Positions 38,000 to 53,886 are shown, numbered from the stretch's first letter. The stretch: DNA of 64,000 bases from Promethearchaeota archaeon (GCA_019058425.1 JAHPYZ010000002.1:27880-91879), one strand, 5' to 3'. The notes: generated from the letters alone by a model not told the origin. Translations and numbers: made by a program.

Positions 38000-38935
38000 A
38001 TGGGAAAAAAATTGGATTCAAATAACTCCGATCAGAAAAACGAATCTGATAACAAGGTAATTAAAGAAGAAATTAGCTTAAATTTACGCTTATGGCTTCC
38101 TTTATTCTATGTTATTTACTATTGCTCCTTTTTAATACCAGGTATCCTTTTCATGTTGTTCATAATGTTTTTTTATTTACCTCATTTCTTAGAAGTAAGA
38201 AATTTTATTCTACTTTTTACTAATATACCATCTCTTATAGCCTCTTTAACAATACCCGTCGTGATAATTATTTGTTATTTAATCCATTTATTTATTGTTG
38301 CATTAATTACTCGATTATTTTGGAGTTACTCGGAAAGAAAATCTCCATCTAAATCTGGAATAATACCACGGAACATCCCAAGCAAAACATTAAATTTTTA
38401 TCACTTTCGCAGTTTTATTATTAAATATCCTAAAAATGCATTTTCTCGTGGTCCATTTCCCTGGTTATCAAAATGGATGTTTAACTTTGTGGGTACAAAT
38501 CAAATAGGAAAAGGATCTGTGATTGAAGAACAAGTTGCCGGAGATAGATTTGTAGAAGTCGGAGAAAATTCCTATATCGGAGCAAATCCAGGAATAAGTT
38601 CACATTCTGTGGATGGAGTCTTTGGTAATATTTCATTTGCAAAAGTAAAAATCGGAAATAATGTTACTGCTGCAGCTTTTAATTGTTTTGCTCCAGGTAT
38701 AGAATCTGGAGATAATTCTTGGTGGTTGCCGATGACGGGAGCAACAAAATATAATATTATGAAAGGAAATAATTACTATTACGGCACACCTCTTAGAAAA
38801 ATCTTTAAAAAAAGAGTAATGGAATATCTTCAAATTACAGAAGAGGATTTGAAAAGAGGAGAAGAATTATCAAATACTTGGAAATTGTCAAAAAGGAAAA
38901 AAAGCAGGAGAGATAAAGTAAATGGATTTAAATGA
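38000..38935 (+). CDS. TM-hairpin + hexapeptide (left-handed beta-helix) module protein, module type 1 of 3 (Pls/PosA C-terminal-repeat-like)
   Basis: 311 aa. Two long TM helices are followed by RKSPSKSGIIPRNIPSKTLNFYHFRSF...GPFPWLSKWMFNFVGTNQIGKGS. Hexapeptide-periodic VEVGENSYIGANPGISSHSVDGVFGNISFAKVKIGNNVTAAA comes next. It aligns with the N-terminal halves of 48758-50587 and 51086-52939. Confidence 0.6.
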   Translation: MGKKLDSNNSDQKNESDNKVIKEEISLNLRLWLPLFYVIYYCSFLIPGILFMLFIMFFYLPHFLEVRNFILLFTNIPSLIASLTIPVVIIICYLIHLFIVALITRLFWSYSERKSPSKSGIIPRNIPSKTLNFYHFRSFIIKYPKNAFSRGPFPWLSKWMFNFVGTNQIGKGSVIEEQVAGDRFVEVGENSYIGANPGISSHSVDGVFGNISFAKVKIGNNVTAAAFNCFAPGIESGDNSWWLPMTGATKYNIMKGNNYYYGTPLRKIFKKRVMEYLQITEEDLKRGEELSNTWKLSKRKKSRRDKVNGFK

Positions 38936-39803
38936 AAAAACTGAAAAGACTGTGGATTATACTATTGATTTTGTTACTACTAGTGCGATAAGTAAAATAG
39001 GTTATAAATTTCTTGCTTTATATATTCCTATCTTATGGGTATCTGGATATATGACATTTGCAGTGTTTTTCGATGTATCACATTACATACCATGGTATAT
39101 AAATATGTTTTTAATACCTGTATGGTTATTCGTTTTATATTTTATTTTCGTTTTTGGGATAACCATTTTTACAAAAGCTTTTTTACTCATTATAAATATG
39201 GTTCATAAGCCTAAGGAGGGCGTTTTTAGAGCAGAAGAAGGCAATAAAGACTACGAATTCTGGCGAGTGAGGGTGGAACTTAAAAAACTTGTCTTTTGGT
39301 TTATGAATAATGGCCCCATAACTTGGATAGTTATGTGGGGTTTTAGATGGATGGGTATTAAGGTGGATTTTTCAAGTCACATGCAGGATGCTTGGGCGGA
39401 TGGAGGATTTATAGAATTCGGTAGAAATGTTACTGTAGGTCAAGGAGCCGTGGTTATGAGCTCAATGGTAGTAGGAAAATATTTGATAATTAAAAAAATA
39501 GATCTGGGAGACTACAATGTTGTTGGAGGTTTATCACTTATTTCCCCAGGTACTATTATGGGTAAAGAATCTATAATTGGAGCTTTTTCTGGTACAATCC
39601 CAAATCAAAAATTAGAGTCTGGATGGATTTATTTAGGTCCAAATAACGCTAGGAAATTAAAACCAAACAAATTTGCAGAACAGAGAAGAGATCAAATATA
39701 TCAGAAGCATGTTGATGATGAAGTGAAATATAAAGTTACACAAGAAGTGAATATTGAAGATGATAAGAAAGATCTTATAAATAATCATGGTGAGGATGGA
39801 TAA
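38922..39803 (+). CDS. TM-hairpin + hexapeptide beta-helix module protein, module type 2 of 3
   Basis: 293 aa. TM hairpin, then HKPKEGVFRAEEGNKDYEFWRVR..., then IEFGRNVTVGQGAVVMSSMVVGKYLIIKKIDLGDYNVVGGLSLISPGTIMGKESIIGAFS. The start overlaps the module-1 gene by 14 nt. It aligns with the C-terminal halves of the 609- and 617-aa proteins. Confidence 0.6.
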   Translation: MDLNEKTEKTVDYTIDFVTTSAISKIGYKFLALYIPILWVSGYMTFAVFFDVSHYIPWYINMFLIPVWLFVLYFIFVFGITIFTKAFLLIINMVHKPKEGVFRAEEGNKDYEFWRVRVELKKLVFWFMNNGPITWIVMWGFRWMGIKVDFSSHMQDAWADGGFIEFGRNVTVGQGAVVMSSMVVGKYLIIKKIDLGDYNVVGGLSLISPGTIMGKESIIGAFSGTIPNQKLESGWIYLGPNNARKLKPNKFAEQRRDQIYQKHVDDEVKYKVTQEVNIEDDKKDLINNHGEDG

Positions 39804-39805
39804 TT

Positions 39806-40654
39806 ATGTCAGTACCTTCAAGTTTAAAAGTAGGTCCTAATACAACCCTTATTTTAGCAAAAAAGAGATATCTTATTTTCTATATTTTCCTTGTCTGGAT
39901 TAGTCTGTTTTCAATTCAATTTGAGTTTTGGGTGCTCTGGATACTCTATGAACCAAAATTTATTCACTTTTTATTGTTCCTTCCTCTAGTTATTTTTCTA
40001 ATGTATCTTTCTTCAATATTAGTATCATTAATCTTCGCTAAAATAATTCTTATTATTGTGAATCTTATTCATAAACCACGTGAAGGAGTATTTTTAAGGC
40101 ATCAATCAGATAAAGATTATAGATATTGGAGTCTAAGAAGTACTATCAAGAAATGGCCAATATGGTTATCTCATAAATTTCCTTTTCCTTTTATGGATAA
40201 TCTATGTTTCAAGATGTTCGGAGTACGAACTAAACTTTCCAGTTCATTATTTGAAGGATGGGTAGATACTGAATTTATCGAATTTGGAAAAAATGTTGTG
40301 GTAGGACAAGGAGCTATTGTTCAATCTGCAATTATAGTTGGAAATCTGTTTATTATAAGAAAAACTATCATTGAGGATAATGTTGTAATTGGTGCTCAAT
40401 CTGTTGTTATGCCTGGCACACATATGAAAAGAAATTCAATTCTAGGAGGGCATTCCCTAACCACAGTAGGTCAAGAACTTGAAGAATGTTTCATCTATTT
40501 AGGAGCTCCGGCAAAAAAATTCAAAAAAAATGTATTCCTTGAAGATGGATTGGAAGAAATCATACAAGAGCAAGGAGAAAAGCAAATTAAATCAAAAGTT
40601 AGTGTTGAAGAATTATACACGGTACGCAAAGATAAAGAAACTAAGGTCGAATGA
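39806..40654 (+). CDS. TM-hairpin + hexapeptide beta-helix module protein, module type 3 of 3
   Basis: 282 aa. TM hairpin, then IHKPREGVFLRHQSDKDYRYWSLRS..., then IEFGKNVVVGQGAIVQSAIIVGNLFIIRKTIIEDNVVIGAQSVVMPGTHM. It starts 3 nt after module 2. Ortholog-like paralog at 52936-53886. Confidence 0.6.
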   Translation: MSVPSSLKVGPNTTLILAKKRYLIFYIFLVWISLFSIQFEFWVLWILYEPKFIHFLLFLPLVIFLMYLSSILVSLIFAKIILIIVNLIHKPREGVFLRHQSDKDYRYWSLRSTIKKWPIWLSHKFPFPFMDNLCFKMFGVRTKLSSSLFEGWVDTEFIEFGKNVVVGQGAIVQSAIIVGNLFIIRKTIIEDNVVIGAQSVVMPGTHMKRNSILGGHSLTTVGQELEECFIYLGAPAKKFKKNVFLEDGLEEIIQEQGEKQIKSKVSVEELYTVRKDKETKVE

Positions 40655-41505
40655 TAAAAATCTTTCCTAATGTTTTATCAAACTCCCAAGGTAGACTAAA
40701 TATGAAAATTGGATATATTCAATCATCTCCATTATTTGGGGATAAGGAGCAAAATTTTGAAGAAATTAAAAACCTTACATCAAATATAAAAGCAGATTTA
40801 ATTGTTTTACCAGAATTATTTGTTACAGGGTATACCTTTATATCCAAAAAAGAAGCAGAATCTTTGGCAGAAGATCTTGAAGGGGAAACGGCTCAATTTT
40901 TAACTGACATCTCCCAATCAACAGGTGCTATTGTAGTTGGAGGATATATTGAAAAAGATCGTCAGAAGATCTATAATTCAGCAATGATTGTATCAAAAAA
41001 TGGAGTTATTGGCTCTTATAGAAAAATTCATTTATATTTCAAGGAAAAAATGTGGTTTTCTCCAGGAGATAAGCCATTAAAAGTATATGATATTAATGGA
41101 ATTAAAATAGGTATAATGATTTGTTTTGATTGGATTTTTCCAGAGACTGCGCGTACTCTAGCAATCTTAGGCGCGGATATAATTGCCCATCCTGCAAATT
41201 TAGTCCTTCCATATTGTCAAAGTGCGATGGTTACAAGATGTTTAGAAAACAGGGTATATGCGATTACTTCGAATAGAATAGGTGAAGAAATAAGAGGAGA
41301 TGATCATTTTAAATTTACTGGAAAAAGTCAAATAACTTCATATAACGGTGAAATCTTATCATCTGCTCCTAATGATAAAAGTTTTATTGATGTTATAGAA
41401 ATTGATATTCAAAAAGCTAGATATAAAAAACTTAATGAATTTAATGATTTACGTAATGATCGTCGACCAGAATTTTACAATTCCATTGTAAATCAAAAAA
41501 AATAG
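40651..41505 (+). CDS. Carbon-nitrogen hydrolase (nitrilase superfamily)
   Basis: 284 aa with Glu-Lys-Cys triad contexts PELFVTGY, YRKIHLY and GIMICFDWIFPE. ATGA overlap with the module-3 gene; an alternative start is ATG 40702. Confidence 0.8.
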   Translation: MIKIFPNVLSNSQGRLNMKIGYIQSSPLFGDKEQNFEEIKNLTSNIKADLIVLPELFVTGYTFISKKEAESLAEDLEGETAQFLTDISQSTGAIVVGGYIEKDRQKIYNSAMIVSKNGVIGSYRKIHLYFKEKMWFSPGDKPLKVYDINGIKIGIMICFDWIFPETARTLAILGADIIAHPANLVLPYCQSAMVTRCLENRVYAITSNRIGEEIRGDDHFKFTGKSQITSYNGEILSSAPNDKSFIDVIEIDIQKARYKKLNEFNDLRNDRRPEFYNSIVNQKK

Positions 41506-41515
41506 TTATAATTTT

Positions 41516-42421
41516 ATGAAAATTGGATATCCTTGTATAAATTTAACTTTAAATTGCAGAAGTAGTAGAACTTTTCGCTTGGAAAATTATTCAGAAGAAA
41601 GACTTATAGGAACTATTGATAATAACTTAAAATGTTTATCTAAAATCTTAAAATTTAACACTGAAAATAATCTTCTGTTTTTTCGAATTACTTCGGATTT
41701 GATACCATTTGCTTCACATCCAATCATGAAATTCAATTGGCAAAATTATTTCAAATCTAAATTCAAAGAAATTGGGTCATATATAAAAAAGAAATCAATG
41801 CGGATCAGCATGCATCCTGGGCAATATACTGTACTTAACTCAAAAAATAAAAATGTGGTTCAAAATAGCATAAAAGAATTAAAATACCATGTAGAAGTTT
41901 TAGAGGTATTAGGTTTAAATTCAGAAGCGAAAGTGATAACTCATGTGGGAGGTGTTTATGGAGATAAGAAAAGCAGTATTAAACGCTTTCTCCAGATGTA
42001 TAAAACTCTCAGTGATAACATAAAGATGCATTTCATAATTGAAAATGATGATAAAAGTTATAATATAAAGGATTGCTTAAAAATCAATGACAACATAGGA
42101 ATTCCAATTGTTTTCGATTCATATCATCATTTTTGTTATAACCAAGGGGAATCTATTGAAGAGGCTATCCAACTTATCTCGAAAACTTGGAAAAAAAAAG
42201 ATGGATTACCTATTCTACATTACAGTTCTGAACATCCAATTAAGGGAAAATATAGACATGCTGATGAAATTGATATAAGTCATTTTAACAATTTTTTAAA
42301 AAAGTCATGTAATTATGATTTTGATCTAATGTTAGAAGTTAAAAATAAAGAAAAAAGTGCTATTCTTGCCAGAGAGCAATTAATTAATGATGTAAGATTT
42401 AAAACAAATTCAGAACTATGA
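41516..42421 (+). CDS. uvdE: UV-damage endonuclease (UvdE/Uve1 family)
   Basis: 301 aa. MKIGYPCINLTL...RTFRL...NL..L..IL.FN.ENNLLFFRITSDLIPFASHP and later HVGG..GDK / FDSYHH blocks are typical of UvdE TIM-barrel endonucleases. Confidence 0.75.
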   Translation: MKIGYPCINLTLNCRSSRTFRLENYSEERLIGTIDNNLKCLSKILKFNTENNLLFFRITSDLIPFASHPIMKFNWQNYFKSKFKEIGSYIKKKSMRISMHPGQYTVLNSKNKNVVQNSIKELKYHVEVLEVLGLNSEAKVITHVGGVYGDKKSSIKRFLQMYKTLSDNIKMHFIIENDDKSYNIKDCLKINDNIGIPIVFDSYHHFCYNQGESIEEAIQLISKTWKKKDGLPILHYSSEHPIKGKYRHADEIDISHFNNFLKKSCNYDFDLMLEVKNKEKSAILAREQLINDVRFKTNSEL

Positions 42422-42464
42422 AAAAATTAGCAGTATATTTTTAATGTAAAAAAAGCTGATATTA

Positions 42465-42938
42465 ATGATGAAAGTTATTAAATTACCTAAAATGGAAGAA
42501 AGGGAGATATTAGAAGCGATAAATTCACAAAATTTGTGTAGAATCGCTTTTATAGATGGTGATTATCCTTATATTGCTCCATTTCAATATATTTGTATAA
42601 ATAATGAGTTATATTTTCATTTTACGGATTATGGTAAAAAAAAGGAGATTATTTCAAAAAATACTAATGTATGTGTCTCAATAGAAAGATTTGAAACAGA
42701 TCTTAGTAGTTATTATTTTATATCGATGCAAGGTAAATTGGAATTAGTTGAAAATACAGATTTGAAAACGAAAGTCATCTTTCAAATGAAAAATTCTGCG
42801 GGAAGTAGTTATTCAGAGAATTTTCTTTCAGCGCATGGTTTTGATAAGAATCTTGGTTGGGAAGGATTTATAGTCAAAAATCAACTCATTTACAAACTTT
42901 CTCAATCAAGAGATCCAATTGGATTAAAGTCTATTTAA
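42465..42938 (+). CDS. Pyridoxamine-5'-phosphate-oxidase-like (split-barrel) flavin-binding protein
   Basis: 157 aa. LCRIAFIDGDYPYIAPFQYICINNELYFHFTDYGKKKEI matches the PNPOx-like (Pyridox_ox_2) N-terminal pattern. Confidence 0.6.
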   Translation: MMKVIKLPKMEEREILEAINSQNLCRIAFIDGDYPYIAPFQYICINNELYFHFTDYGKKKEIISKNTNVCVSIERFETDLSSYYFISMQGKLELVENTDLKTKVIFQMKNSAGSSYSENFLSAHGFDKNLGWEGFIVKNQLIYKLSQSRDPIGLKSI

Positions 42939-43004
42939 AATTACTTTGATTTCTTAATTTGGTTAATAGTTTAAAATGTTTTTAAAAAGAATTTATTGAT
43001 TTGG

Positions 43005-43057
43005 AAAAGTTTGGCTAACTTTTGGCAATAAAATCTAACATTTATCATTTTATTCCC
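43005..43057 (-). promoter_or_regulatory. Two consecutive hairpins in the 3' UTR of the TGA-containing redoxin gene (candidate SECIS and/or terminator)
   Basis: RNA sense: GGGAAUAAAAU[GAUAAAUGUUAG]AUUUUAUUGCC (43057-43024; 8 A-U pairs, a G-G mismatch, then 2 G-C pairs; 12-nt loop). It starts 7 nt after the stop and is immediately followed by AAAAGUU[AGCCA]AACUUUU (43023-43005). Structure is seen by eye only and I cannot match it to a SECIS consensus. Confidence 0.25.
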
Positions 43058-43063
43058 TCCAAA

Positions 43064-43543
43064 TCATTGATTTTTATTAATTTCTTCAAGAACTTGTAAT
43101 ATTTCATCATTTTCTGGGATATCATGCATATTCTTGCCATAATAAGCATATTGTATTATTCCTTTTTTGTCAATGACTAATAGTCCAGGCATTCGACCAA
43201 GTTTTATCCACCTTGTTTCTTGTTTCAACATCTCAGCAACTGATTTTGATTGGTCGTAAAATATAGCATATTTTCGTGCATATTTCTGCTCCATTTTTTT
43301 AGCATTTTTTTCATTATCTACTAAAATTGGATAGAGAAATCCATCTAATTGTTCAAATTTCTCAATATCTCTTCTTAATCTCGCAGCATGCCATCGGCAG
43401 AAAGGTCAATTAATATCTCTAAATAATATAATAACTACATTCTTTTTATTTTCGAAATCTCGTATGTTAATTGTTTCTCCTCTAGAATTTGGCAAACTAA
43501 ATTCACTTATTTTAGATCCCACTACATTAAATTTATCTTTCAT
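43064..43543 (-). CDS. Thioredoxin-fold redoxin/peroxiredoxin-like protein with in-frame TGA at the catalytic Cys position (probable selenoprotein, UPFC motif)
   Basis: A 160-codon frame from ATG 43543 (GAAGG RBS about 10 nt upstream) reads MKDKFNVVGSKISEFSLPNSRGETINIRDFENKKNVVIILFRDIN[TGA]PFCRWHAARL...LGRMPGLLVIDKKGIIQYAYYG.... The TGA (43406-43408) replaces the first Cys of the F...W-C-P-F-C redox motif. The track shows only the 76-aa part downstream of the TGA. Confidence 0.65.
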
Positions 43544-43575
43544 ATTTATTTACCTTCTTTTTTTAAATTTAAATT

Positions 43576-44041
43576 TTAGATTTCCTTAAGAATCTTAAAG
43601 ATTTCTTCAATTGTAGGTATATCATCCATATAATCACTGTAATAGGCGTATTTTATAATTCCCTTTTTATCGATTATGAGTAATGCGGGCATCCTACCCA
43701 ATTTAAAAGGTTTTACTTCCTGTTTTAATATCTTATTTACTTTCTTTTTACGATCATAAAAAAATTGGATATTTTTTTGCAAAATTGGCTTCAAATTTCT
43801 TAGCACTTTCATAGTCATCTGGTAGAATTGCATATAATAAAGCATTGTAATTCTGAGACTTTTCAAACATATTACTTAACTTTTGAGCATAAACTTTAGC
43901 ATATGGTCAACTTTTACTTCGAAATAAAACTATTACTACACTACTGCCCATATAGTCTCGAATAATCCTAGTTTCACCTCTTGAGTTCGGTAATTCGAAT
44001 TCTTTTATTTTAGAACCTACTAAATTAAATTTATCTTTCAT
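43576..44041 (-). pseudogene. Paralogous redoxin gene with TGA at the same position (UPYA) plus a frameshift in an A7/T7 run; pseudogene, sequencing error or recoding
   Basis: From ATG 44041: MKDKFNLVGSKIKEFELPNSRGETRIIRDYMGSSVVIVLFRSKS[TGA 43907-43909]PYAKVYAQKL...EANFAKKYPIF. The frame then shifts by 1 at the homopolymer 43758-43764 to continue YDRKKKVNKILKQEVKPFKLGRMPALLIIDKKGIIKYAYY.... The span is 466 nt, not a multiple of 3. Confidence 0.5.
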
Positions 44042-44276
44042 TATGCTCACATAATATCAATTTGTAGATTTATCAAATAAGAATTAAATATTATTCATAT
44101 ATATTCCTTTATATTAATTCTAAATGTGTTTAATATTATTAATCTGGATATAGATCGAATTCTCTATATTTTATTAATTAATTTCATTTTTTTTTTCAAA
44201 TTTTAAAGAATAGAATGTCATAAATTTATAAATTTAAGTAACATAAGTTAAAATCTAATTTCACATATTTTGAATT

Positions 44277-45116
44277 ATGAATTCTATTGAAAAAACAGAA
44301 GAAGGTTGGTTAATTCCAAAATCTCCTATTACTTTCGATTACCTAAAAAAATTCAATCGGAATATGGGTATTTTACATTTGATACAAGGGTTACTAATGG
44401 TGCTTTTTGGGTTTTTACCTCAACTAGCTTTTTCCAGAGACATTTACACTTTTTACCTCAAGTTTGAACTCGTTGGTCCAGATTTCGTTATTTCACCAAA
44501 TCCTACAGTGTTGTTTGTCTTTAGTGCTTTAGGGGCATTTGTTGGCTCTTTTCTATTAATGTCTGCCATCGCTCATTTGTTAATAGCTTATCCGCTAAAT
44601 AAAAGCTATGTTAGAAATTTAAAAAGAGGAATAAACAAAGTACGTTGGTTTGAGTACGCCCTATCAAGTTCCGTAATGATTTTCTTAATAGCTATCTTTT
44701 TTGGAGTCTGGGATTTTTGGTCATTGTTTATGATTTTTATTTCTAATGCCTTGATGAATATGTTTGGCTTAATGATGGAATCATATAATGTATATACAAG
44801 AGAAAGAAATGAGAAGGTTAAATGGGGACCATATTATTTAGGTGTAATCGCAGGAGCCGTTCCTTGGATTGTTATTACTGCATATTTTATAAGTACTGAA
44901 ACCATTGGAGGAGAAGTACCACTATTTGTCTATTTGATTTATGGAATCGAACTATTTTTCTTTAACACATTCGCAATCAATATGATACTGCAATATAAAG
45001 GAGTGGGAAAATGGAAGGATTATCTATACGGTGAAAGAGTATATCAACTACTAAGTCTTGTATCTAAAACCTTTTTAGCATGGCTCGTATTTGCTGGAGT
45101 ATTTAGTCCTACATAA
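44277..45116 (+). CDS. Heliorhodopsin
   Basis: 279 aa with 7 TM helices. Strong colinear similarity, from my memory of heliorhodopsin 48C12: KKFNRNMGILHLIQ, AIAHLLI, KVRWFEYALSSSVMIFLIA, GAVPWIV, FFFNTFAINMILQYKGVGKWKDYLYGERVYQLLSLVSKTFLAWLVFAG. The Schiff-base Lys candidate is K264 (nt 45066-45068) and the counterion-position Glu is E126. Confidence 0.85.
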   Translation: MNSIEKTEEGWLIPKSPITFDYLKKFNRNMGILHLIQGLLMVLFGFLPQLAFSRDIYTFYLKFELVGPDFVISPNPTVLFVFSALGAFVGSFLLMSAIAHLLIAYPLNKSYVRNLKRGINKVRWFEYALSSSVMIFLIAIFFGVWDFWSLFMIFISNALMNMFGLMMESYNVYTRERNEKVKWGPYYLGVIAGAVPWIVITAYFISTETIGGEVPLFVYLIYGIELFFFNTFAINMILQYKGVGKWKDYLYGERVYQLLSLVSKTFLAWLVFAGVFSPT

Positions 45117-45154
45117 TATAATAGTCTATATTTTTTTCTTTTTTTTTAGTTAAA

Positions 45155-46795
45155 TTATACATCTAATACATAAATCGGCCACTTTTTCAAAATACCTTTG
45201 GGATTTTTCCCGTTTCGGACTTTATTTAACATTACAGATCTGGTTGCTAAGAAGTCTACCGGATTATTTTTGATTAATTCTAATTTAATATCTCTGTTTA
45301 AAATGGCTCGTTTAAAATTTTCATTTTTAATACACTTTACCAATATCTCACGATAATCTTGTAAATTTGAACATTTTGTATTGTCACTCGAGTAAAGATA
45401 TAATTTCTTTGCGTTATTCGTAGATCTAATATGGTTTATTAAAAGAAGTGAGTCAATATATAAAGCACAATTCTCTTTCAAGCAATTTAATAGTAACCGT
45501 GGATTATTAATATCGAAATTTGGAAAAGTAAAATAATCACCCGCATAGACTTTATAATTCGATGGTAAACTAATCTCACTTGATACATTTATTGGATATT
45601 TTAGTTGAAAACTTGATCTTAAGATTTTTCCGTCAATTTGAGGAAGCCCATTCTGATTTAAAAGAGAGATTACATCCCCTATATTTATATTAATTAATAC
45701 TCCTGTGGTATGAAGCCGAGAAACATAAAGCTTACCAAATTTATTTTGTGATCTAGAAACTGGTTCTCTCTTTCCATCATATTCTATTGCAGGTAAGGTT
45801 AAGGGAAAGATGTACATTCTATTAGAACGAGATATTTCAAAATCTCCCGCGTTAATACTTGCCGCAAATGGCCCAATTTCAGAAGCGACATAGAGATTAG
45901 TAAATTTTTCTGTGCCTTCTTCCCATTTCATAAATTTACGAATTAATAACCAATCTGATTTTGATAACGAACTAATACTAAAAATTAAAGTTGCCCTCGA
46001 TATTTTTTTTGATAATTCTTTCTGAATTTGTTTTGAAGTATTATACAATCCATTTTTTTCTATTTTCAACAAGAGATCTTGAAGTTTAGGATTTTTATTT
46101 TTTTTAATTAAATCAAGTGATCTTCTTATCCCCTCCTGGAGTCTATTAATATCTGCCCATCCTAAAATTGTTATAGCGGGAGCAGAAATAACTGAGATAT
46201 TATTCATCGTTAGAATTTGAGCTATAATCGCTAAATTCCTTGAATTTTTATATTCATAGAACAAATAAGATTTTGGTTTAATAATAGAAAGCATGATCCT
46301 TTGAGAAAATTCTGAAGAATAGAGTGAGACGTACTTCTTTGACTCAAAAGTACTAATTCCATCAAATTTCAATCTCGAGGGTACGAAAATTATAGCAGAT
46401 GATTTTGAATCTAATCCACTGGATTCAAAAATTGCTTGCATACCAGGAGCCCATTGCCTCTTTACAATATCTTTTGCCATATGAAACCATTTTAGCATAG
46501 ATAACTTACTGTTTGTTGTCCCTGATGTATGACAAAAGATTAGGGGATCATTTTCTTGTTTTTTTTTCAAGAAATCTTCTAAATCTATTGAGAAACTTCT
46601 TGATTCAGTGGTATCAGACTTTAATCTTTCGAAAATGTCTTCAACAGACGATAATCCCGAGAATTTTAAAGATATTTCCTCATATTCTTCCCGAGAACTA
46701 ATATCAAGCCATTTCTTCCAATCTGTTCTTTGAATATTGGAGAAATTATTATCGAAGATTCTTTGAGTCTCTAAATCAAAATCAAACGCATTCAA
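45155..46795 (-). CDS. Divergent adenylate-forming (ANL / PaaK-F390-synthetase / GH3-like) enzyme, putative
   Basis: 546 aa. FCHTSGTTNSKLSMLKW resembles the (T/S)SGTTG.PK P-loop motif. LYVASEIGP, NIGDVISL and PQIDGKILRS sit where motifs A5, A7 and A8 would be. All motifs are degenerate, so the call is tentative. Confidence 0.35.
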   Translation of the reverse strand: MNAFDFDLETQRIFDNNFSNIQRTDWKKWLDISSREEYEEISLKFSGLSSVEDIFERLKSDTTESRSFSIDLEDFLKKKQENDPLIFCHTSGTTNSKLSMLKWFHMAKDIVKRQWAPGMQAIFESSGLDSKSSAIIFVPSRLKFDGISTFESKKYVSLYSSEFSQRIMLSIIKPKSYLFYEYKNSRNLAIIAQILTMNNISVISAPAITILGWADINRLQEGIRRSLDLIKKNKNPKLQDLLLKIEKNGLYNTSKQIQKELSKKISRATLIFSISSLSKSDWLLIRKFMKWEEGTEKFTNLYVASEIGPFAASINAGDFEISRSNRMYIFPLTLPAIEYDGKREPVSRSQNKFGKLYVSRLHTTGVLININIGDVISLLNQNGLPQIDGKILRSSFQLKYPINVSSEISLPSNYKVYAGDYFTFPNFDINNPRLLLNCLKENCALYIDSLLLINHIRSTNNAKKLYLYSSDNTKCSNLQDYREILVKCIKNENFKRAILNRDIKLELIKNNPVDFLATRSVMLNKVRNGKNPKGILKKWPIYVLDV

Positions 46796-46852
46796 TTCAA
46801 AACCAATATAAATTTATGTAAAAAAAAAGGAAAAAGAAAATAAATAATTATG

Positions 46853-47401
46853 TTAAAATCTTATAGAATGCGGAATAATACCATAAAGACCAGTCTCGGA
46901 ATCTAGAAATAATTGTATGTTTGGAGGAAAATATGTGAATATTGCAAATAATAACCCAAATCCAATGAATATCAACAAAGAAGTAATCATATACCACTTA
47001 GATAATTGGTCTTTTGTCATAATTTTATAACTTACATATTGACCTATTATAACTCCGAATACAAAACTTAATATATCTATAATGAGTAATTCCGTTCCGA
47101 GTATAGCGGTATAAGAATAAAAAATAATCAGTATTGTACTAATAGCTATTAAAAATGAAATGGTTTTTCCTATAATGAAATTTTTCGCTTCTTCTTTAAT
47201 GAAATTATATTCTATTATTGAAAATATGATTAATGGCCAATATGGTAATTTGAGATGCTCCCACACACTTTCATTGACGGGAAAGATCGCGCCTAAAGGA
47301 CTCCAGTAATTCAATATTGCGAACATAAAATGGAATAAAGCACCAAGTATAACAATGACAAGTATTCCTAATGATTCCCATTTTAATATTGTATTTTTCA
47401 T
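46853..47401 (-). CDS. Small multi-pass membrane protein, unknown function
   Basis: 182 aa with 5 TM helices and no diagnostic motif. Confidence 0.4.
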   Translation of the reverse strand: MKNTILKWESLGILVIVILGALFHFMFAILNYWSPLGAIFPVNESVWEHLKLPYWPLIIFSIIEYNFIKEEAKNFIIGKTISFLIAISTILIIFYSYTAILGTELLIIDILSFVFGVIIGQYVSYKIMTKDQLSKWYMITSLLIFIGFGLLFAIFTYFPPNIQLFLDSETGLYGIIPHSIRF

Positions 47402-47614
47402 AATTTTACTCCTTCAAATTTAATTTTAGAATTAAAATACTTAGAAATTGTATTTAAAAGTAGGAGTTCTGATGATCTATATTTATTTTTAGATAAAAAA
47501 GTGCTGTTTAGATTATATAAACTTTATAGGAAAAAAGATTAATTATAAACTATATTTGAGCAATTTTAATTATAATTTCTAATATCAAATAATGTACTAA
47601 TTTAAGATGAACAA

Positions 47615-48625
47615 GTGATGAAAGCAGCTATCTTTGATGGTAAAGAAATCAAAATTGAAAATGTGCCTGAACCGATGATAAATGATTCTCAAGTATTGGT
47701 TCGTGTCAAGGCAGTAGGTATATGTGGAACAGATTTGGCTATAGCTCATGGAGATTTACCAACTCCTACGCCAATAATTCTAGGTCACGAATTCGTAGGA
47801 GAAGTGGTGAAATTAGGCAATAAAATTGAAAAAGATTGGCTTAATAAACGGGTGACTTCTGAAATAAATAGTAATATTGATTTTAGTTGCTATTATTGTA
47901 AGCAAGGACTATATACTCAGTGTTTATCTCGTAAAGCATTAGGTATTGATATAGATGGTGCTCTAGCAGAATATATCGCATTAGATCCTTATCTATTGCA
48001 TGAAATACCTGATTCAATAAGTTATGTGGAAGCAACCTTTATTGAACCTCTCGCTGCTGCCTATCAAACATTTGAAATGATGCCAATTGATAAAAATGAT
48101 GAGACTATGGTAATATTTGGGCTTGGAAAGTTAGGATTACTTATTACTCAAGTAGCATTGTCTAAAGGATTAAAGTTAATAGTTATAGATGGTTCAGATA
48201 AAAAACTGAATTTAGCAAAAAAATATGGAGCAATTCAGGGCTTAAATAGACATAATATTAAAGAAATTCCAATGGAAATTAAAAATCTTACTGCAGGATT
48301 AGGGGCGGATATAGTAGTTGATACAACTGGTAATCCCAATGCTCTTAAAGATATTATTTCATCTTGTAGAACTCGTGGAAAAGTTCATATAAAGAGCACT
48401 CATGGTCTTGAAACACCAATTAATTTAACAGATATCGTAGTTCGAGAGCTTACTCTTTATAGCAGTCGATGTGGACCATTTGAAAAAGCAATCGAAGGTC
48501 TGAAATCTGGGGATATACAAGTTAAAGAATTAATTTCAAAAAAATTTGATTTAGATAATGTACATGAGGCTTTTGACTCTTATAGCATAAGTAGTGATTA
48601 TATTAAGACTCTAATTTTGATTTAA
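47615..48625 (+). CDS. Zinc-dependent medium-chain alcohol/polyol dehydrogenase
   Basis: 336 aa with GICGTDL, GHEFVGEV, a structural-zinc Cys cluster (CYYCKQGLYTQC) and a GLGKLG Rossmann motif. Confidence 0.8.
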   Translation: MMKAAIFDGKEIKIENVPEPMINDSQVLVRVKAVGICGTDLAIAHGDLPTPTPIILGHEFVGEVVKLGNKIEKDWLNKRVTSEINSNIDFSCYYCKQGLYTQCLSRKALGIDIDGALAEYIALDPYLLHEIPDSISYVEATFIEPLAAAYQTFEMMPIDKNDETMVIFGLGKLGLLITQVALSKGLKLIVIDGSDKKLNLAKKYGAIQGLNRHNIKEIPMEIKNLTAGLGADIVVDTTGNPNALKDIISSCRTRGKVHIKSTHGLETPINLTDIVVRELTLYSSRCGPFEKAIEGLKSGDIQVKELISKKFDLDNVHEAFDSYSISSDYIKTLILI

Positions 48626-48757
48626 TGCTCTATTGTGTATTAAAACTCAAAAATTTATAAGCACAAGTAAAAAAACATTGAATTTTTTAGAAAATAAATT
48701 TTAATTATAACATATATAATTAAAACCATAATTTAGTACTTTTAAGGAAAAGTAAAG

Positions 48758-50587
48758 ATGGGGATGACAGAATTAACTTCAATTGAGACTGTCCCAGAGA
48801 AGCACTCTATTCGAGAGGAAATTGATACTCAATATTTTTGGTATCTATTTGTTCTTTTCGCAATATTTTTAGCATCATTAGTTATTCCTGCTATTATATT
48901 CATTTTTTATATGATTTTCTTCTTTATACCTAATTTTTTAGAAGTTCCAAGTTTTTTAGCTCTTTTTACACAATTTAAACCTTTATTAGCCTTAGTCTCT
49001 ATGCCTTTAGTCCTAATCGGTTGTTATCTTATTCGTTTATATTTTATTGGATTAATAACACGTGGTTTTAAGTTTTTAACCGAAAAAAGATCTCCTAGTA
49101 AAGAAGGTATTATTCCAAGAAATTTTCCCAGCAAAACCTTAAGTTACTATCAAATCAGAGGGTTTATGATAAAATATGGAAAGAATGCGTTCATGAAAGG
49201 ACCTTTTCCATGGCTTGGCAATTGGTATTTTAATTTTATAGGTGCTAGTAAAATTGGAAAAGGCACTACATTTGAAGAATCCCCCAGTAATGATAAATTT
49301 ATTGAAGTAGGAGAGAATTCCTATATTGGAGTTAATTCATCTTTAGCTAGTCACGTTATTGAGGGAATTTTTGGAAACATTTCATATTTTAAAGTAAAAA
49401 CTGGAAATAATTTTACTGCTGCAGCCAGTAATGTTTTAGGTCCTGGTTCTGAGGCATATGATAATTCTTATTTACTTCCTTTAGCAGCAACCCCAAAGCA
49501 TAGTGTAATTAAAGGAAATAATTATTATTGGGGTATGCCTTTAAGGAAAATTTTCAGAAAAAAGATAATGAATTTTTTAAGATTAACACCAAAAGATTTA
49601 GAGAGAGGTGAAAATGTTGGAGGTTTTCGGGACAAAAAATTGTTAAAAAAATTAAAAACTAGAAAACTCTCAAAACACCTTGAATCTGAGACAAAAATAC
49701 AACAAGAAAACACAGAATCTAGAGAGAGTCTTATAAACCATAATAATATAGATGAAGAAAATCTAAAAATTGATTTTACTACAAGTAGTGCGATTTCAAG
49801 AGTAAATATTAGATTTTTAGTTTTATATATCCCAATTTTTTGGTTATCTGGGATGTTAGATACTGCAATCTTTTATTCTTTCACTTCATATGTTCACAAT
49901 TGGATATTAATGGCCTTTTTTCTACCTGCTATATTTATTATTATGTGGTTTGTTTTCATTTTTGGGTGTTTTATTTTCAGTAAACTTTTCCTAGTCTTAA
50001 TAAATTTAATACATAAGCCAAAAGAAGGAATCTTCAAGGCGGAAAAGGGTGATTCTGATTTTGAGTTTTGGTGTTTACGAACTGAATTAAAAAAGATAGC
50101 ATTTTGGCTTATAAGAAATTGGCCGCTTCCATGGATGGATATTTTAGCCTTTAAATGGTTTGGAATTAAAATGAAATTATCAAGTACCTTATGGGATTCC
50201 TACACTGATGGTGAGTTTATTCAGTTTGGACGTAGAGTAATAGTTGGACAAGGTGCTAGTGTTATGTCTTCAATGGTAATAGGTAAATATTTACTGATTA
50301 AGAAAGTCTTCTTTGATGATTATGTTGTTATTGGAGGGCAGAGTATCATCGCCCCAGGAACGATTGTTGGTAAGGATTCTGTGGTTGGGGCTCTCAGTAC
50401 GACTACTTATAATCAAGTTCTTGAACCAGGTTGGATTTATTTTGGAATTCCAGTAATTAAATTAAAACCAAATAAGTATGCTGAGGGAAGAAGGGAAATT
50501 CTTATGAAAAGAGATGTTGATGGGGAGAAAAAGTTTGAAATAAAGTATGATGTCAATGTCGATGAAGATAAGAAAGATATCGCTTAG
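48758..50587 (+). CDS. Fused module-1 + module-2 TM/hexapeptide beta-helix protein (locus 2)
   Basis: 609 aa. Residues 1-300 are colinear with 38000-38935 (KRSPSKEGIIPRNFPSKTLSYYQIRGF...GPFPWLGNWYFNFIGASKIGKG). Residues 330-609 are colinear with 38922-39803 (IHKPKEGIFKAEKGDSDFEFW...IQFGRRVIVGQGASVMSSMVIGKYLLIKK). No module-3 gene follows. Confidence 0.6.
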   Translation: MGMTELTSIETVPEKHSIREEIDTQYFWYLFVLFAIFLASLVIPAIIFIFYMIFFFIPNFLEVPSFLALFTQFKPLLALVSMPLVLIGCYLIRLYFIGLITRGFKFLTEKRSPSKEGIIPRNFPSKTLSYYQIRGFMIKYGKNAFMKGPFPWLGNWYFNFIGASKIGKGTTFEESPSNDKFIEVGENSYIGVNSSLASHVIEGIFGNISYFKVKTGNNFTAAASNVLGPGSEAYDNSYLLPLAATPKHSVIKGNNYYWGMPLRKIFRKKIMNFLRLTPKDLERGENVGGFRDKKLLKKLKTRKLSKHLESETKIQQENTESRESLINHNNIDEENLKIDFTTSSAISRVNIRFLVLYIPIFWLSGMLDTAIFYSFTSYVHNWILMAFFLPAIFIIMWFVFIFGCFIFSKLFLVLINLIHKPKEGIFKAEKGDSDFEFWCLRTELKKIAFWLIRNWPLPWMDILAFKWFGIKMKLSSTLWDSYTDGEFIQFGRRVIVGQGASVMSSMVIGKYLLIKKVFFDDYVVIGGQSIIAPGTIVGKDSVVGALSTTTYNQVLEPGWIYFGIPVIKLKPNKYAEGRREILMKRDVDGEKKFEIKYDVNVDEDKKDIA

Positions 50588-50605
50588 GTTTTCATTAATT
50601 TTTTA

Positions 50606-50998
50606 CTATATCTTTAAATTGAGTTGTTTTTTCAAGAATTTCTTCAAATTTTTACAAGTATTATTCAATACAGCTTTTTCTTTATAAAATAGATGAGTTC
50701 GAGGACAATACTTATCATATATACATTTTTGTTTTTCAAAATCAAAAATTAGAGGATAAAATCTACAACCTTGTGGCCTATATTCATAAATATTACATAT
50801 TTTTGAATTTTTCTCAAAAAAAATACAATTACCTTCAATATTTTTCAATTGAAAAAGGTTATCTTCATTTTTAAAATAAAATGCTTGATTAGGTAAATAA
50901 TTTTGGCATTTTCTTATTATTAAGCTAATATCATCTTCGGAGACAATCATCTCTGTCTCTATACAACACTTTCCGCAATCCTTACATTTATCAGACAT
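50606..50998 (-). CDS. YkgJ/UPF0153-type CxxCxxCC Cys-cluster protein
   Basis: 130 aa. CKDCGKCC near the N-terminus plus later Cys residues (CIFF, CNIYEYRPQGCRFYP) fit the putative Zn/Fe-chelating YkgJ family. Confidence 0.55.
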   Translation of the reverse strand: MSDKCKDCGKCCIETEMIVSEDDISLIIRKCQNYLPNQAFYFKNEDNLFQLKNIEGNCIFFEKNSKICNIYEYRPQGCRFYPLIFDFEKQKCIYDKYCPRTHLFYKEKAVLNNTCKNLKKFLKKQLNLKI

Positions 50999-51085
50999 TA
51001 TGATTTGTTCTTTTTATCTGAGACTAATACTTTTAAAAGAAAAAAAAATATCTATTAAATTATAATAAGTATCAATTGTTTTTTA

Positions 51086-52939
51086 ATGAAGAAAAAATTA
51101 CTGAAACCTAGCGAAGAAGTTATAAAAGAAGAAGTAAGTCTTCAATTTCATTTATATATTATAATATTCGCTATAATCTATTATGTTTCATGGGTTATTC
51201 CAGGATTTGTTTTTTGGCTATATTTTTTCTTTCCCTTTCGAATATTTTTTCTAGAAAATATTGGATTTTTTTCTTTATTTACTAATCTTAGTTCTCTAAT
51301 AAGCTTGTTGATTATGCCGTTGGTGATTATTGGCTGCTATTTGCTTCATTTATTTTTTCTTGGATTAATTACACGATTAATTTGGGGAATTACAGAAAGG
51401 ATTTCTCCATCCAAATCAGGAATAATACCAAGAAATATTAAAAGTAGGGCTGCCAATTATTACCATATACGAAGTTTCATGATAAAATATGGAAAGAATA
51501 CATTTACAAAAGGAATGTTTCCATGGCTCTCGAATTGGTTTTTTAATTTTGTAGGAACAAACAAAATAGGAAAAGGCTCTACTTTTGAGGAATCTGTAGG
51601 AAATGATAAATTTGTTGAAGTAGGAGAGAATTGCTATTTCGGAGTTAATTCTACTTTAGCAAGTCATCTGATCCAAGGAGTCTTTGGAAACATATCATAT
51701 TTTAAAATTAATGTTGGAAATAATGTTACTTTTGCTGCAATGTGCGGAGTAGGTCCTGGGTCAGAACTTTATGATAATGCTTATCTATTACCGCTAGCTT
51801 CAACTCCAAAACATAGTGTGATGAAAGGAAGTAATTACTATTTTGGAATGCCAATGAGGAAAATCTTTAGGAAGAAAATAATGAATTATCTTGATGTAGT
51901 TCCAAAAGATTTGGAAATGAGTGATAATATTCAGGGGTATTCTGATAAGAAATTATTAAAAGAAATAAAAGAAAAAAAAGGGGTTTTAAAAACTTTTGAT
52001 GAAAAACTCGATAAAGAACAATTATTAAGTAATCAAGAAGATGAAGTAGTAAATATAGAAAATCTAACTGAACAAGATTTAAGGATTGATTTCACCACTA
52101 GTTCAGCAATAAGTAGGGTAAATGCAAAATTCTTACTTGTTTATATACCTATTTTTTGGCTATCAGGACTAGTAGTAACAATAATTTGGTATTGGTACTC
52201 TAGAACACAAGTTGCAACAAACTTTCAATGGTCTTTTTTCTTTGCTTTCCCACTTGTTTTGTTCGGATTAACGTATATCTTTATTTTAGGGTGTCTTCTT
52301 TTTAGTAAGCTTTTTTTGATATTAGTCAACTTAATTCACAGACCTAAGGAGGGGGTTTTCAAAGCTGCGATTGGGAATACTGATTTTGAGTTTTGGCAGT
52401 TGAGAACTGAGTTAAAGAAGATTCCTTTATGGTTTTTTCGGAATTCACCATTTCCATGGACTGATGTTTTAGCTTTCAAACAAATGGGGGTTAATATGGA
52501 TTTTTCTAGCCATTTAGCTGACACATGGTGTGACTCGGAATTTATTAAATTTGGTCGGAAAGTTATGATTGGGCAAGGAGCTACTTTAATGTCTTCAATG
52601 GTAGTTGGTAAATATTTATTAATTAAGAAAGTATTTTTTGAGGACTATGTTATGGTTGGAGGACATACTACAATATCCCCTGGAACCGTAATAGGGAAAG
52701 AAACTGTTATTGGTGCTCTCAGTACAAGTACTTATGAACAGGTTTTAGAACCAGCATGGATATACTTCGGAATTCCAGCTATGAAAATGAAAGAAAACAA
52801 GTATGCTGAAGAGAGAAGAGATATAATAATAAAACGAGAAGTTGCAGATGCTAAAAAGACTGAATTAATACATGATGTAAATATTGATGAAGATAAAAAA
52901 AAATTAATCAAATTAGAAAAAGAGAGTGAGGAAAAATGA
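51086..52939 (+). CDS. Fused module-1 + module-2 TM/hexapeptide beta-helix protein (locus 3)
   Basis: 617 aa, colinear with 48758-50587 over its full length (ERISPSKSGIIPRNIKSRAANYYHIRSF...; IHRPKEGVFKAAIGNTDFEFW...IKFGRKVMIGQGATLMSSMVVGKYLLIKK). Confidence 0.6.
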   Translation: MKKKLLKPSEEVIKEEVSLQFHLYIIIFAIIYYVSWVIPGFVFWLYFFFPFRIFFLENIGFFSLFTNLSSLISLLIMPLVIIGCYLLHLFFLGLITRLIWGITERISPSKSGIIPRNIKSRAANYYHIRSFMIKYGKNTFTKGMFPWLSNWFFNFVGTNKIGKGSTFEESVGNDKFVEVGENCYFGVNSTLASHLIQGVFGNISYFKINVGNNVTFAAMCGVGPGSELYDNAYLLPLASTPKHSVMKGSNYYFGMPMRKIFRKKIMNYLDVVPKDLEMSDNIQGYSDKKLLKEIKEKKGVLKTFDEKLDKEQLLSNQEDEVVNIENLTEQDLRIDFTTSSAISRVNAKFLLVYIPIFWLSGLVVTIIWYWYSRTQVATNFQWSFFFAFPLVLFGLTYIFILGCLLFSKLFLILVNLIHRPKEGVFKAAIGNTDFEFWQLRTELKKIPLWFFRNSPFPWTDVLAFKQMGVNMDFSSHLADTWCDSEFIKFGRKVMIGQGATLMSSMVVGKYLLIKKVFFEDYVMVGGHTTISPGTVIGKETVIGALSTSTYEQVLEPAWIYFGIPAMKMKENKYAEERRDIIIKREVADAKKTELIHDVNIDEDKKKLIKLEKESEEK

Positions 52940-53886
52940 GTGTTCCAAATACAATGAGAATCGGACCTTTTGTTACAAATGTTTTAGTAAAAAAAAGTTA
53001 TTTAATTTTATATATTTTTATTATATGGGCAAGTCTCATTCCAATCCTTTTGGAATTCTGGATTTATTGGCGATTTTTATGGAATGCAGTGAGACCTGTC
53101 CATTTTTATACATTTCTTCCACTCTTAGCTTTTCTGATGTATATTACTCTCGTTTTTTCTGCAATTATTTTTGCTAAGATCATATTGCTGGTCGTAAATG
53201 TTATTCATAAACCCCGAGAAGGTGTTTTTTTACGAATTCCAGAGGATCAAGATTATAGATATTGGAGTCTTCGAAGTGTTATAAAGAGATGGCCAATCTG
53301 GCTCGCTCACAGATTTCCTTTCCCAGGATTTATGGATAATATTTGTTTCAAAATGTTTGGAGTGAAAACAAAGATTTCGAACTCTTTATTTGAAGGGTGG
53401 GTTGATGCTGAATTTGTAGAGTTTGGTAAAGATGTAGTAGTAGGACAAGGAGCAATTGTACAATCTGCTGTAATTATTGGTAATCTATTAATAATCAGGA
53501 AAACAATCGTTGAAGAAAATGTTAGAATAGGTTCACATGCTATAATAATGCCAGGTACACATATCGGATATAATTGTATTTTAGCAGCGAATTCAGTGAC
53601 TACAGTTGGCCAAGTTTTAGAGAGAGGTTATATTTATGCGGGAGTTCCAGCAAAGAAATTTAAGAAGAATTATTTTTTTGAAGATGGTTTAGAAGATAGA
53701 ATAGGTCATGTAGAAGATGTTGAAGCGTTAAGAGAGAAATATGAAGAAATATATACTAAAAGGCATGATCAAATTACCCGTAAAGACCGCAGGGAAATCA
53801 AGAGAGAAAAGAAGGAAGAAGAAAAGAAGAGATTTGATATCGCCGCCGAAGAATGGGAAGAATTTGATGATGGTTTCAATATATAG
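52936..53886 (+). CDS. Module-3 TM/hexapeptide beta-helix protein (locus 3)
   Basis: 316 aa. ATGA overlap with the preceding gene. Colinear with 39806-40654 (IHKPREGVFLRIPEDQDYRYWSLRS...VEFGKDVVVGQGAIVQSAVIIGNLLIIRK). The C-terminal tail is charged. Confidence 0.6.
   Translation: MSVPNTMRIGPFVTNVLVKKSYLILYIFIIWASLIPILLEFWIYWRFLWNAVRPVHFYTFLPLLAFLMYITLVFSAIIFAKIILLVVNVIHKPREGVFLRIPEDQDYRYWSLRSVIKRWPIWLAHRFPFPGFMDNICFKMFGVKTKISNSLFEGWVDAEFVEFGKDVVVGQGAIVQSAVIIGNLLIIRKTIVEENVRIGSHAIIMPGTHIGYNCILAANSVTTVGQVLERGYIYAGVPAKKFKKNYFFEDGLEDRIGHVEDVEALREKYEEIYTKRHDQITRKDRREIKREKKEEEKKRFDIAAEEWEEFDDGFNI

Follow-up and report, generated by a model that had tools for sequence, protein, structure and literature searches.

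Split, multi-copy Asgard membrane proteins homologous to the C-terminal half of Pls/PosA synthetases, with a predicted adenylate-forming enzyme as candidate partner

Does the genome of an Asgard archaeon encode the membrane half of an ε-poly-L-lysine-type synthetase in pieces and, if so, what might such proteins do? This question is raised by a 64,000-nucleotide stretch of DNA from a Promethearchaeota archaeon (GCA_019058425.1, JAHPYZ010000002.1:27880-91879; hereafter the window), in which three loci encode proteins built from one repeating module, a transmembrane (TM) hairpin followed by a left-handed β-helix (LbH). The first-pass annotation of this sequence had likened these modules to the C-terminal part of the synthetase Pls and its PosA relatives, and had proposed that they may be a dissociated form of that polymerase. 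The reading that we favour, and to which we assign a probability of roughly 60%, is that the proteins form a thioester-dependent acyltransferase complex of Pls-like build, with a six-TM bundle and a single cytoplasmic active site, which in many genomes would be fed by u546, a predicted adenylate-forming enzyme encoded between the first two loci that had not been taken up in that annotation.

The window contains eight copies of the module, of three types (M1, M2 and M3), in six plus-strand genes (Table 1). Locus 1 carries the three types as separate genes, loci 2 and 3 each carry an M1-M2 fusion (A and B, respectively), and fusion B is followed by a second M3 gene (M3b). Seven genes in three loci had been counted initially: the loci, the three module types and the layout of each locus are borne out, with plus-strand open reading frames (ORFs) where they had been placed, and the gene number is corrected to six. 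When all window ORFs of at least 50 aa were scanned with type-specific hidden Markov models (HMMs), exactly these six genes were matched and no additional module copy was found; an 83-aa ORF at 52926-53177, which overlaps the junction of fusion B and M3b, is spurious. The eight modules align over ~250 columns, with an invariant Ser in TM1, Pro in TM2, Gly in the junction and several glycines in the LbH. Identity is 17-21% between M1 and either M2 or M3 and 33-37% between M2 and M3, and since the type-specific HMMs match across types with E-values of 1e-10 to 2e-19, the repeat is real and far beyond chance. The junction motifs that had been read from the sequence are seen in this alignment as well, IHKP(K/R)EG(V/I)F...D(Y/F).(F/Y)W in M2 and M3 and SPSK(S/E)GIIPRN in M1. 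The start of M2 overlaps the stop of M1 by 14 nt, and overlaps of 4 nt are found between the end of fusion B and M3b and between the end of M3a and a carbon-nitrogen hydrolase (CN-hydrolase) gene, which suggests that these neighbouring genes are translationally coupled.

How close are these proteins to Pls/PosA? Among NCBIfam matches, the Pls/PosA model TIGR02353 ranks first for M2, M3a and fusion A and second for fusion B and M3b, with E-values of 2e-9 to 7e-13 for M3a, M3b and the two fusions and of 7e-5 for M2 of locus 1; for M1 of locus 1 it comes fourth and is not significant (E 0.2). The alignment of M3a, residues 44-236 against model positions 508-695 (E 2e-9), includes the TM region. 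Since the best score is 47.9 bits (the 617-aa fusion; 9.9-46.8 bits for the other five), far under the cutoff of 423.1 bits, the six proteins are not members of TIGR02353. Pls/PosA carries three units per chain, and the window's chains have one or two. Adenylation (A) and thiolation (T) domains were sought with Pfam and NCBIfam in all six proteins and none was found, the only matches being to Hexapep/LbH families, in agreement with their initial description as lacking A and T domains.

Sequences were also searched in the opposite direction. The eight modules of the window, trimmed and with no other sequences added, were made into a profile, and in a set of 1.84 billion representative proteins it gave 3303 matches with E<=1e-3; 702 representative clusters had E<=1e-10, and proteins of one, two and three modules are among the matches. 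One match is a true Pls/PosA nonribosomal peptide synthetase of 1320 aa (P0367; TIGR02353 589.8 bits, amino-acid adenylation domain 424 bits), found with E 7.4e-26 in three stretches, the best of which (profile positions 42-249) spans TM2, junction and LbH; hhalign of the M3 alignment against the same protein gives a probability of 96.3%. In hmmalign alignments, Asgard modules, bacterial three-module proteins and Pls have several motifs in common that lie outside the generic hexapeptide repeat: [KR]-E-G-x-[FY] directly after TM2, a conserved Trp helix, F..(M/L)G.K(V/I)G and (I/V)(W/Y)xGxPA(K/R)K. The proposed likeness to the Pls/PosA repeat is thus upheld by the profile match, the hhalign probability and the common junction motifs. 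A better fit to ordinary acetyltransferases, which had been named as evidence that would count against it, was not seen, since those enzymes match only the last ~100 residues. As judged from these alignments, homology to Pls/PosA reaches past the hexapeptide repeat into the TM and junction region.

The predicted structure of the modules agrees with this relationship. In each module a short, K/R-poor loop separates two long hydrophobic helices that have K/R-rich flanks, and on this basis every LbH domain is predicted to lie on the same, cytoplasmic side of the membrane. The AlphaFold2 (AF2) model of the 617-aa fusion B places TM helices at residues 19-56 and 68-105 in the first module and at 347-377 and 382-417 in the second, followed in each case by two junction helices and then the LbH. 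LbH domains on different membrane sides, which the first-pass annotation had listed as an argument against its own proposal, are therefore seen neither in the K/R pattern nor in the model. Its estimate of 8-10 hexapeptide-type turns does not hold: the AF2 model shows ~5 LbH coils (~90-100 aa), matching the "five turns" of the published model for PosA's C-terminal domain. The latter comprises six bent TM helices in three pairs, with two helices between each TM pair and a five-turn LbH, and packs its three LbHs with pseudo-threefold symmetry (PMC10522769); the AF2 layout of the window modules is the same as this published layout. Four proteins pass the gathering threshold of PF00132 (29.8-38.5 bits) and the two others, M1 and M2 from locus 1, stay under it (19.1 and 22.2 bits); Foldseek matches the fusion model with probability 1.0 to 3nz2, 1kqa and 3vbi, all CoA-dependent LbH acyltransferases. 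By their hexapeptide repeats and the LbH strands of the AF2 model, the six proteins belong to the hexapeptide-repeat/LbH fold. Every module ends in a poorly conserved, K/E/D-rich C-terminal tail of 30-70 residues, which has a low predicted local distance difference test score (pLDDT) in the AF2 model.

Are these modules, then, the pieces of a broken-up Pls? A/T-less three-module proteins also occur in bacteria (Elusimicrobia proteins of 651 and 662 aa, further proteins of 680 and 683 aa, and a 960-aa fusion to a short-chain dehydrogenase/reductase, SDR), and their TIGR02353 scores of 157-184 bits place these bacterial triples nearer to Pls in sequence than the Asgard modules are. The window genes form an Asgard branch of this wider family. 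The earlier suggestion that a split, triplicated archaeal system is undescribed holds in so far as we found no account of one in the literature, while the A/T-less form as such is not restricted to archaea. Within Asgard there are triple fusions too, such as a 797-aa protein ordered M3-M1-M2, along with other arrangements, many single-module relatives (e.g. 245-aa Helarchaeota proteins) and distant homologues in the cultured Lokiarchaeum ossiferum and in Helarchaeota. A one-to-one equivalence of M1, M2 and M3 with the C1, C2 and C3 units of Pls was considered and rejected: the modules of Pls and of the bacterial proteins are all nearer to M2/M3 than to M1, with no positional pattern. Because this correspondence is missing, the idea of a dissociated Pls probably does not stand, and the Asgard triplet is more likely a parallel elaboration of a common single-module ancestor.

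A second line of evidence concerns how the modules are combined. GTDB species representatives were scanned with the M3 alignment, giving 299 confirmed loci, and the order, identity and neighbour counts reported here refer to the best 80 of these, all from Asgard metagenome-assembled genomes (MAGs), one per species representative, with modules typed by HMM. Because M3 copies that are 93-94% identical (L015-L017) bear different phylum names (Thor-, Hermod- and Promethearchaeota), the phylum labels of these MAGs are unreliable and cannot be used to describe distribution. M3b is 61-94% identical across the 80 species representatives, and Asgard genomes contain 2-3 paralogous sets each. Operon-like groups take the form M1-M2 M3 (57 cases), M1 M2 M3 (23, and 3 more with extra M1 pieces), M3 M1-M2 (4) or a lone M1-M2 gene (37), which is adjoined in every case by an M3-containing set. 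All 108 fusions that were typed are M1-M2, and the orders M2-M1, M1-M3 and M3-M2 were sought among the 80 loci without success. Such a fixed cyclic order fits a ring-shaped pseudo-trimer, which predicts it; fusion A of the window probably shares M3b. In the closed genome CP070831.1 (L001 11884-12299), a syntenic fusion is followed only by a 138-aa ORF at the place of M3, while a complete M3 is encoded at a distance of ~1 Mb, beside a gene with M2 alone, an exception to the rule of complete sets.

The three types also differ at a position that may mark the active site. HMM match column 181 holds His in M1 only, with Ser in M2 and Ala in M3, and the M1 residue (H194 in fusion B) is invariant in 40 homologues. 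In phmmer comparisons with PDB sequences (E 0.06-0.9, consistent across targets), it pairs with the His of TG-H-P in LacA (1kqa) and of AT-H-P in maltose acetyltransferases (3hjj, 6ag8); the LacA residue is the catalytic base His115. Pls has this His in just one of its units, C3, and four of the five bacterial triples have it in module 2 alone. Since M1 alone keeps the His that aligns with the catalytic one of LacA and the maltose acetyltransferases (MATs), we infer one active site per complex, and together with gene order this points to a 1:1:1 M1·M2·M3 pseudo-trimer with six TM helices and its single site at an M1 interface.

If the complex acts on a thioester, what might supply it? The u546 protein matched nothing in Pfam, NCBIfam or PDB sequences, even at permissive E-values, and its homologues are Asgard "hypothetical proteins" only. 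Its AF2 model, made from a 40-sequence alignment, is of high confidence (pLDDT 90.2, predicted template modelling score 0.89) and is matched by Foldseek to PaaK1 (1.4e-10) and JAR1/GH3.11 (5.5e-10) and, further, to AjiA1, GH3.15, FscC and McbA. The residues H89, S91, G92, T93, T94, Y302, S305, E306, D374 and K533 are invariant, and among them the motifs of ANL enzymes can be recognised: an HTSGTT P-loop, YVASE (Y302-x-x-S-E), D374 and a C-terminal GK...K (K533). We therefore predict from the model that u546 is a sequence-orphan adenylate-forming enzyme of the PaaK/GH3 type, and the ANL fold with its invariant motifs makes it a plausible candidate for a trans-acting activator of the LbH complex. 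A canonical AMP-binding acyl/aryl-CoA ligase of 555 aa is encoded ~4.6 kb upstream of locus 1, and in two other loci (L002/L004) an AMP-binding gene like it, of 573 aa, is found downstream of fusion and M3, close to AlaX; the 555-aa ligase could be a second candidate activator, or unrelated.

In the complex that we propose, one M1, one M2 and one M3, whether made separately or with M1 and M2 joined in a fusion, would form a six-TM bundle with a cytoplasmic LbH trimer, and the window could provide up to three such assemblies, M1·M2·M3a, fusion B·M3b and fusion A·M3b, with M3b shared. The one active site, at an M1 interface with the M1 His as base, would take an acyl group, or an aminoacyl group, off a phosphopantetheine thioester, as in LbH acyltransferases and Pls, and pass it to an acceptor bound at, or passing through, the TM bundle; the product would be membrane-proximal or exported. 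The donor would probably be made by u546 in about half of the related genomes, and the zinc-dependent dehydrogenase, CN-hydrolase, CxxCxxCC protein and DUF6512 protein encoded nearby may contribute accessory steps.

Several observations weigh against this proposal. The M1·M2·M3 complex is drawn solely from gene order and residue asymmetry, and each of these has its exceptions: in the closed genome CP070831.1 (L033), M2 and M3 stand as a pair next to which no M1 was detected, and one bacterial triple (P0357) has the column-181 His in all three modules. The alignment of the M1 His with that of LacA and MATs comes from weak pairwise matches (E 0.06-0.9), and the AF2 model of the 617-aa fusion is only of moderate quality (pLDDT 66.8). 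As for the donor, u546 is missing from about half of the loci with enough flanking sequence and from more distant Asgard relatives, and neither a carrier protein nor a phosphopantetheinyl transferase was seen near the loci. Bacterial contexts are heterogeneous, with two more triple loci that differ from those described below, and since all 80 loci come from related Asgard MAGs, part of the neighbour linkage may be inherited synteny.

Other readings of the same proteins have to be weighed against the acyltransferase complex. Closest to the initial suggestion is a Pls-like iterative polymerase, in which a trans-acting activator would load an amino acid and M1·M2·M3 would polymerise it to a secreted homopoly(amino acid) or amide-linked polymer. 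The sole characterised members of this architecture, to which the modules are homologous, are all polymerases (PMC10522769; PMC8117764), the six-TM bundle has been kept though an ordinary acetyltransferase needs none, and the conserved neighbourhood contains u546 and an amide-cleaving CN-hydrolase; we nevertheless consider this reading unlikely, for the nearest structural relatives of u546 (PaaK, GH3, AjiA1, McbA and aryl-acid A domains) act on carboxylic or aryl acids and not on diamino acids, a carrier (T) domain is not in evidence, and the modules reach only 10-48 bits on TIGR02353 without orthology of M1-M3 to C1-C3. Bacterial stand-alone relatives, moreover, lie beside SDR, glycosyltransferase and sugar-nucleotide genes, which suggests acylation of small molecules or glycolipids. 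Similarly doubtful is the most far-reaching version, a conserved, multi-copy, heterotrimeric Asgard Pls-type membrane polymerase that is fed by u546 and builds and exports a novel amide- or ester-linked oligomer or polymer, or an acylated envelope lipid or glycan. Were an Asgard polymerase of this kind to be real, the prokaryotes most closely related to eukaryotes would have a new biosynthetic machine and, made by it, a new product that is secreted or displayed on the cell surface.

At the other end stands the more ordinary view that each type is a homotrimeric, membrane-tethered acetyl-CoA O/N-acetyltransferase acting on a glycan, lipid or xenobiotic beside unrelated neighbours. Generic LbH families do score near TIGR02353 (heptaprenylglyceryl-phosphate O-acetyltransferase at 1.8e-14, for example, as well as WcaF and Vat/CatB), the best PDB and Foldseek matches are maltose and galactoside acetyltransferases, and the many single-module relatives are what one would expect of it. 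Even so, M2 and M3 have kept 60-94% identity without the His, the three types almost never occur apart and are fused only in cyclic order, and the Pls match runs through the junction and TM2, which generic enzymes do not reach; we therefore judge such acetyltransferases to be rather improbable, and the corresponding account of the Pls likeness, as common ancestry of anchor and LbH and nothing more, equally so. Least probable is a non-catalytic LbH trimer, a membrane-anchored structural or γ-carbonic-anhydrase-like module comparable to the carbonic anhydrase domain of plant and protist complex I, serving as a scaffold or transport accessory. M3 matches γ-carbonic anhydrases and complex-I carbonic anhydrase subunits in PDB with E-values of 1e-5 to 1e-7, and two of the three module types lack the putative catalytic His, but there is no conserved three-His zinc site (the columns invariant across modules hold no His at all), M1 has an invariant His at the putative acyltransferase catalytic position, and the nearest full-length relatives are enzymes. 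The specific γ-carbonic-anhydrase reading is rejected for want of a conserved His triad.

Table 1. Positions in the window of the module genes and of neighbouring features, with their presence among the 80 Asgard loci (lower bounds).
Feature	Position	Strand	Presence in 80 loci	Remarks
M1 module, split locus 1	38000..38935	+		311 aa; two TM helices, SPSKSG junction, LbH, His (SSHS)
M2 module, locus 1	38922..39803	+		293 aa; HKPKEG junction; Ser at His position
M3a module (copy a), locus 1	39806..40654	+		282 aa; Ala at His position
M1+M2 fusion A, locus 2	48758..50587	+		609 aa; without its own M3
M1+M2 fusion B, locus 3	51086..52939	+		617 aa; AF2 model made
M3b module (copy b), locus 3	52936..53886	+		316 aa
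K/E/D-rich tails	38700-38935, 39650-39803, 53680-53886			fusion linker ~51900-52100
u546	45155..46795	-	31	between loci 1 and 2; predicted PaaK/GH3-like ANL enzyme
Carbon-nitrogen hydrolase (nitrilase/amidase superfamily)	40651..41505	+	22; directly after M3 in 14	after M3a; follows split trio in L005 too
DUF6512 small integral membrane protein	46853..47401	-	33; adjoins u546 in 28	
Zn-dependent medium-chain dehydrogenase (Zn-ADH)	47615..48625	+	53; order ADH> (fusion)> CxxC< in 51	Tdh-like, below Tdh cutoffs
CxxCxxCC (PF03692) putative Zn/Fe-binding protein	50606..50998	-	68; divergent, directly upstream of full M1, M2, M3 set in 64	
AlaXM alanyl-tRNA editing protein	54089..54796	-	37	syntenic downstream
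AMP-binding acyl/aryl-CoA ligase	31686-33353	-		
DUF1295 and 266-aa upstream genes	37034-37861 and 36119-36919	+		
UvdE and PNPOx-like genes	41516-42938	+	11-13	
Heliorhodopsin (PF18761)	44277-45116	+	15	
Leucine-rich repeat protein	55645-56682	+		

The module genes sit in a conserved super-locus of the form [M1 M2 M3 CN-hydrolase] ... u546< DUF6512< Zn-ADH> (fusion x0-2)> CxxCxxCC< (fusion or M1 M2)> M3> AlaXM<. The neighbour counts of Table 1 were obtained by comparing the window proteins with the ORFs of the 80 loci by BLASTP, and are lower bounds as many contigs are incomplete; where the sequence extends 6 kb or more upstream of CxxCxxCC (47 loci), Zn-ADH was found in 32 cases, DUF6512 in 27 cases and u546 in 26. 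AlaXM was considered as a link to aminoacyl-tRNA and is treated as inherited gene order, other genes intervening in L002. Several further genes were noted in passing. Between locus 1 and u546 lies a heliorhodopsin gene (E 5e-86), the orientation of which flips between genomes. The CN-hydrolase gene is followed, with gaps of 10 and 43 nt, by genes for a UvdE UV-damage endonuclease and a PNPOx-like flavoprotein, which are syntenic in some of the loci and may belong to one transcription unit with the split trio. Directly upstream of M1 are genes for a DUF1295 (steroid-reductase/ICMT-like) membrane protein and an unannotated polytopic membrane protein of 266 aa; DUF1295 was found beside a split trio in one other locus only (L092). 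Beyond AlaXM is a gene for a eukaryote-like repeat protein of 345 aa that consists almost entirely of leucine-rich repeats (LRR_4, E 1.5e-50).

In bacteria, one Elusimicrobia triple is flanked by an SDR on one side and an AMP-binding enzyme on the other, and a GT1 glycosyltransferase is encoded downstream; after another triple come genes for a GT1 glycosyltransferase and a GMC oxidoreductase, for an SDR (two genes downstream) and for sugar-nucleotide metabolism; and in a third (P0341, 960 aa, L013 8001-10883), a mycolate-reductase-like SDR is fused to the three TM-LbH modules. The bacterial parallel of activator, dehydrogenase and three TM-LbH modules is suggestive but anecdotal. SDR and AMP-binding neighbours recur only anecdotally across the family, and the notion of one partner gene for the whole family was rejected, distant Asgard and bacterial loci having no single neighbour in common. 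A separate soluble hexapeptide protein is encoded directly upstream of P0341. Ahead of a further bacterial triple (L097 1626-3500) stand a FemAB-like protein (PF04339) and a pair of EamA half-transporters, which hints at a context of aminoacyl transfer and export.

What does the locus add to what has been described? The architecture has been stated to occur only in Pls-related synthetases (PMC8117764), and a broad PosA survey contains homologues of 1100-1800 aa only. The literature was searched for A/T-less or split Pls-type domains, for Asgard TM-LbH proteins and for cryo-electron microscopy of Pls, and no relevant description was found. What is new here, on the evidence of sequence, is a split, putatively heteromeric, archaeal and multi-copy form of the Pls-type architecture together with a predicted new family of candidate partner enzymes, as u546 would be a branch of the adenylate-forming enzymes that is new and a sequence orphan. 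Of Pls/PosA, an enzyme of commercial importance, no part is less well understood than the membrane half: searches of PDB by sequence and by fold returned soluble LbH enzymes and no solved structure of the Pls type, and the literature searched contains neither an experimental structure of this half nor an assigned catalytic residue. A naturally split form with separable subunits, of which one bears the His, offers a directly testable model of a single active site, and the prediction carries over to Pls, at the His of C3. Of the uncharacterised membrane proteins that we met in Asgard, this family is one of the better conserved, and since M3 is so well conserved in 80 species, with more than one set per genome and distant homologues in the cultured Lokiarchaeum ossiferum, the product of the complex is probably of importance to the envelope or to dealings with other organisms.

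Comparison with known systems brings out what is shared and what is particular. Like the C-terminal domain of Pls and of PosA, the latter a δ-poly-L-ornithine synthetase, the Asgard proteins have a unit of TM hairpin, two junction helices and ~5-coil LbH, with three units and six TM helices per (in Asgard, putative) assembly, LbH domains that are cytoplasmic (as predicted for the Asgard modules) and the LacA-type His position filled in one of three units only. They differ in that the units are spread over two or three polypeptides where Pls is one chain, in the greater length of the modules (~280-310 aa against ~230 aa, with a K/E-rich C-terminal tail), and in the lack of A or T domains, the archaeal host and the several paralogous sets per genome. 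With the bacterial triples (e.g. MBK8576353.1 from Elusimicrobia, 651 aa, uncharacterised) they have in common a stand-alone, A/T-less organisation of three TM hairpin and LbH units, a His in a single module (four of five triples) and, sometimes, an adenylate-forming enzyme and a dehydrogenase nearby; the bacterial modules, however, are all in one chain, and their neighbours are an SDR in place of Zn-ADH, a canonical AMP-binding enzyme in place of u546, and GT1 glycosyltransferases. Soluble galactoside and maltose acetyltransferases and their relatives (LacA 1kqa, maltose O-acetyltransferase 3hjj, VCA0836 3nz2, AntD 3vbi) have the LbH fold and the catalytic His with which that of M1 aligns, and for the Asgard proteins, too, a CoA-thioester donor and trimeric packing would be expected; these enzymes are soluble and homotrimeric, their three active sites being equivalent, whereas the Asgard proteins have N-terminal TM hairpins, three diverged subunit types and an apparent single site. 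Finally, u546 resembles the PaaK/GH3 branch of ANL enzymes in its predicted two-domain fold, P-loop (HTSGTT), YxxSE, Asp and C-terminal Lys, and is set apart from it by the lack of detectable sequence-family membership and by homologues that were found in Asgard only.

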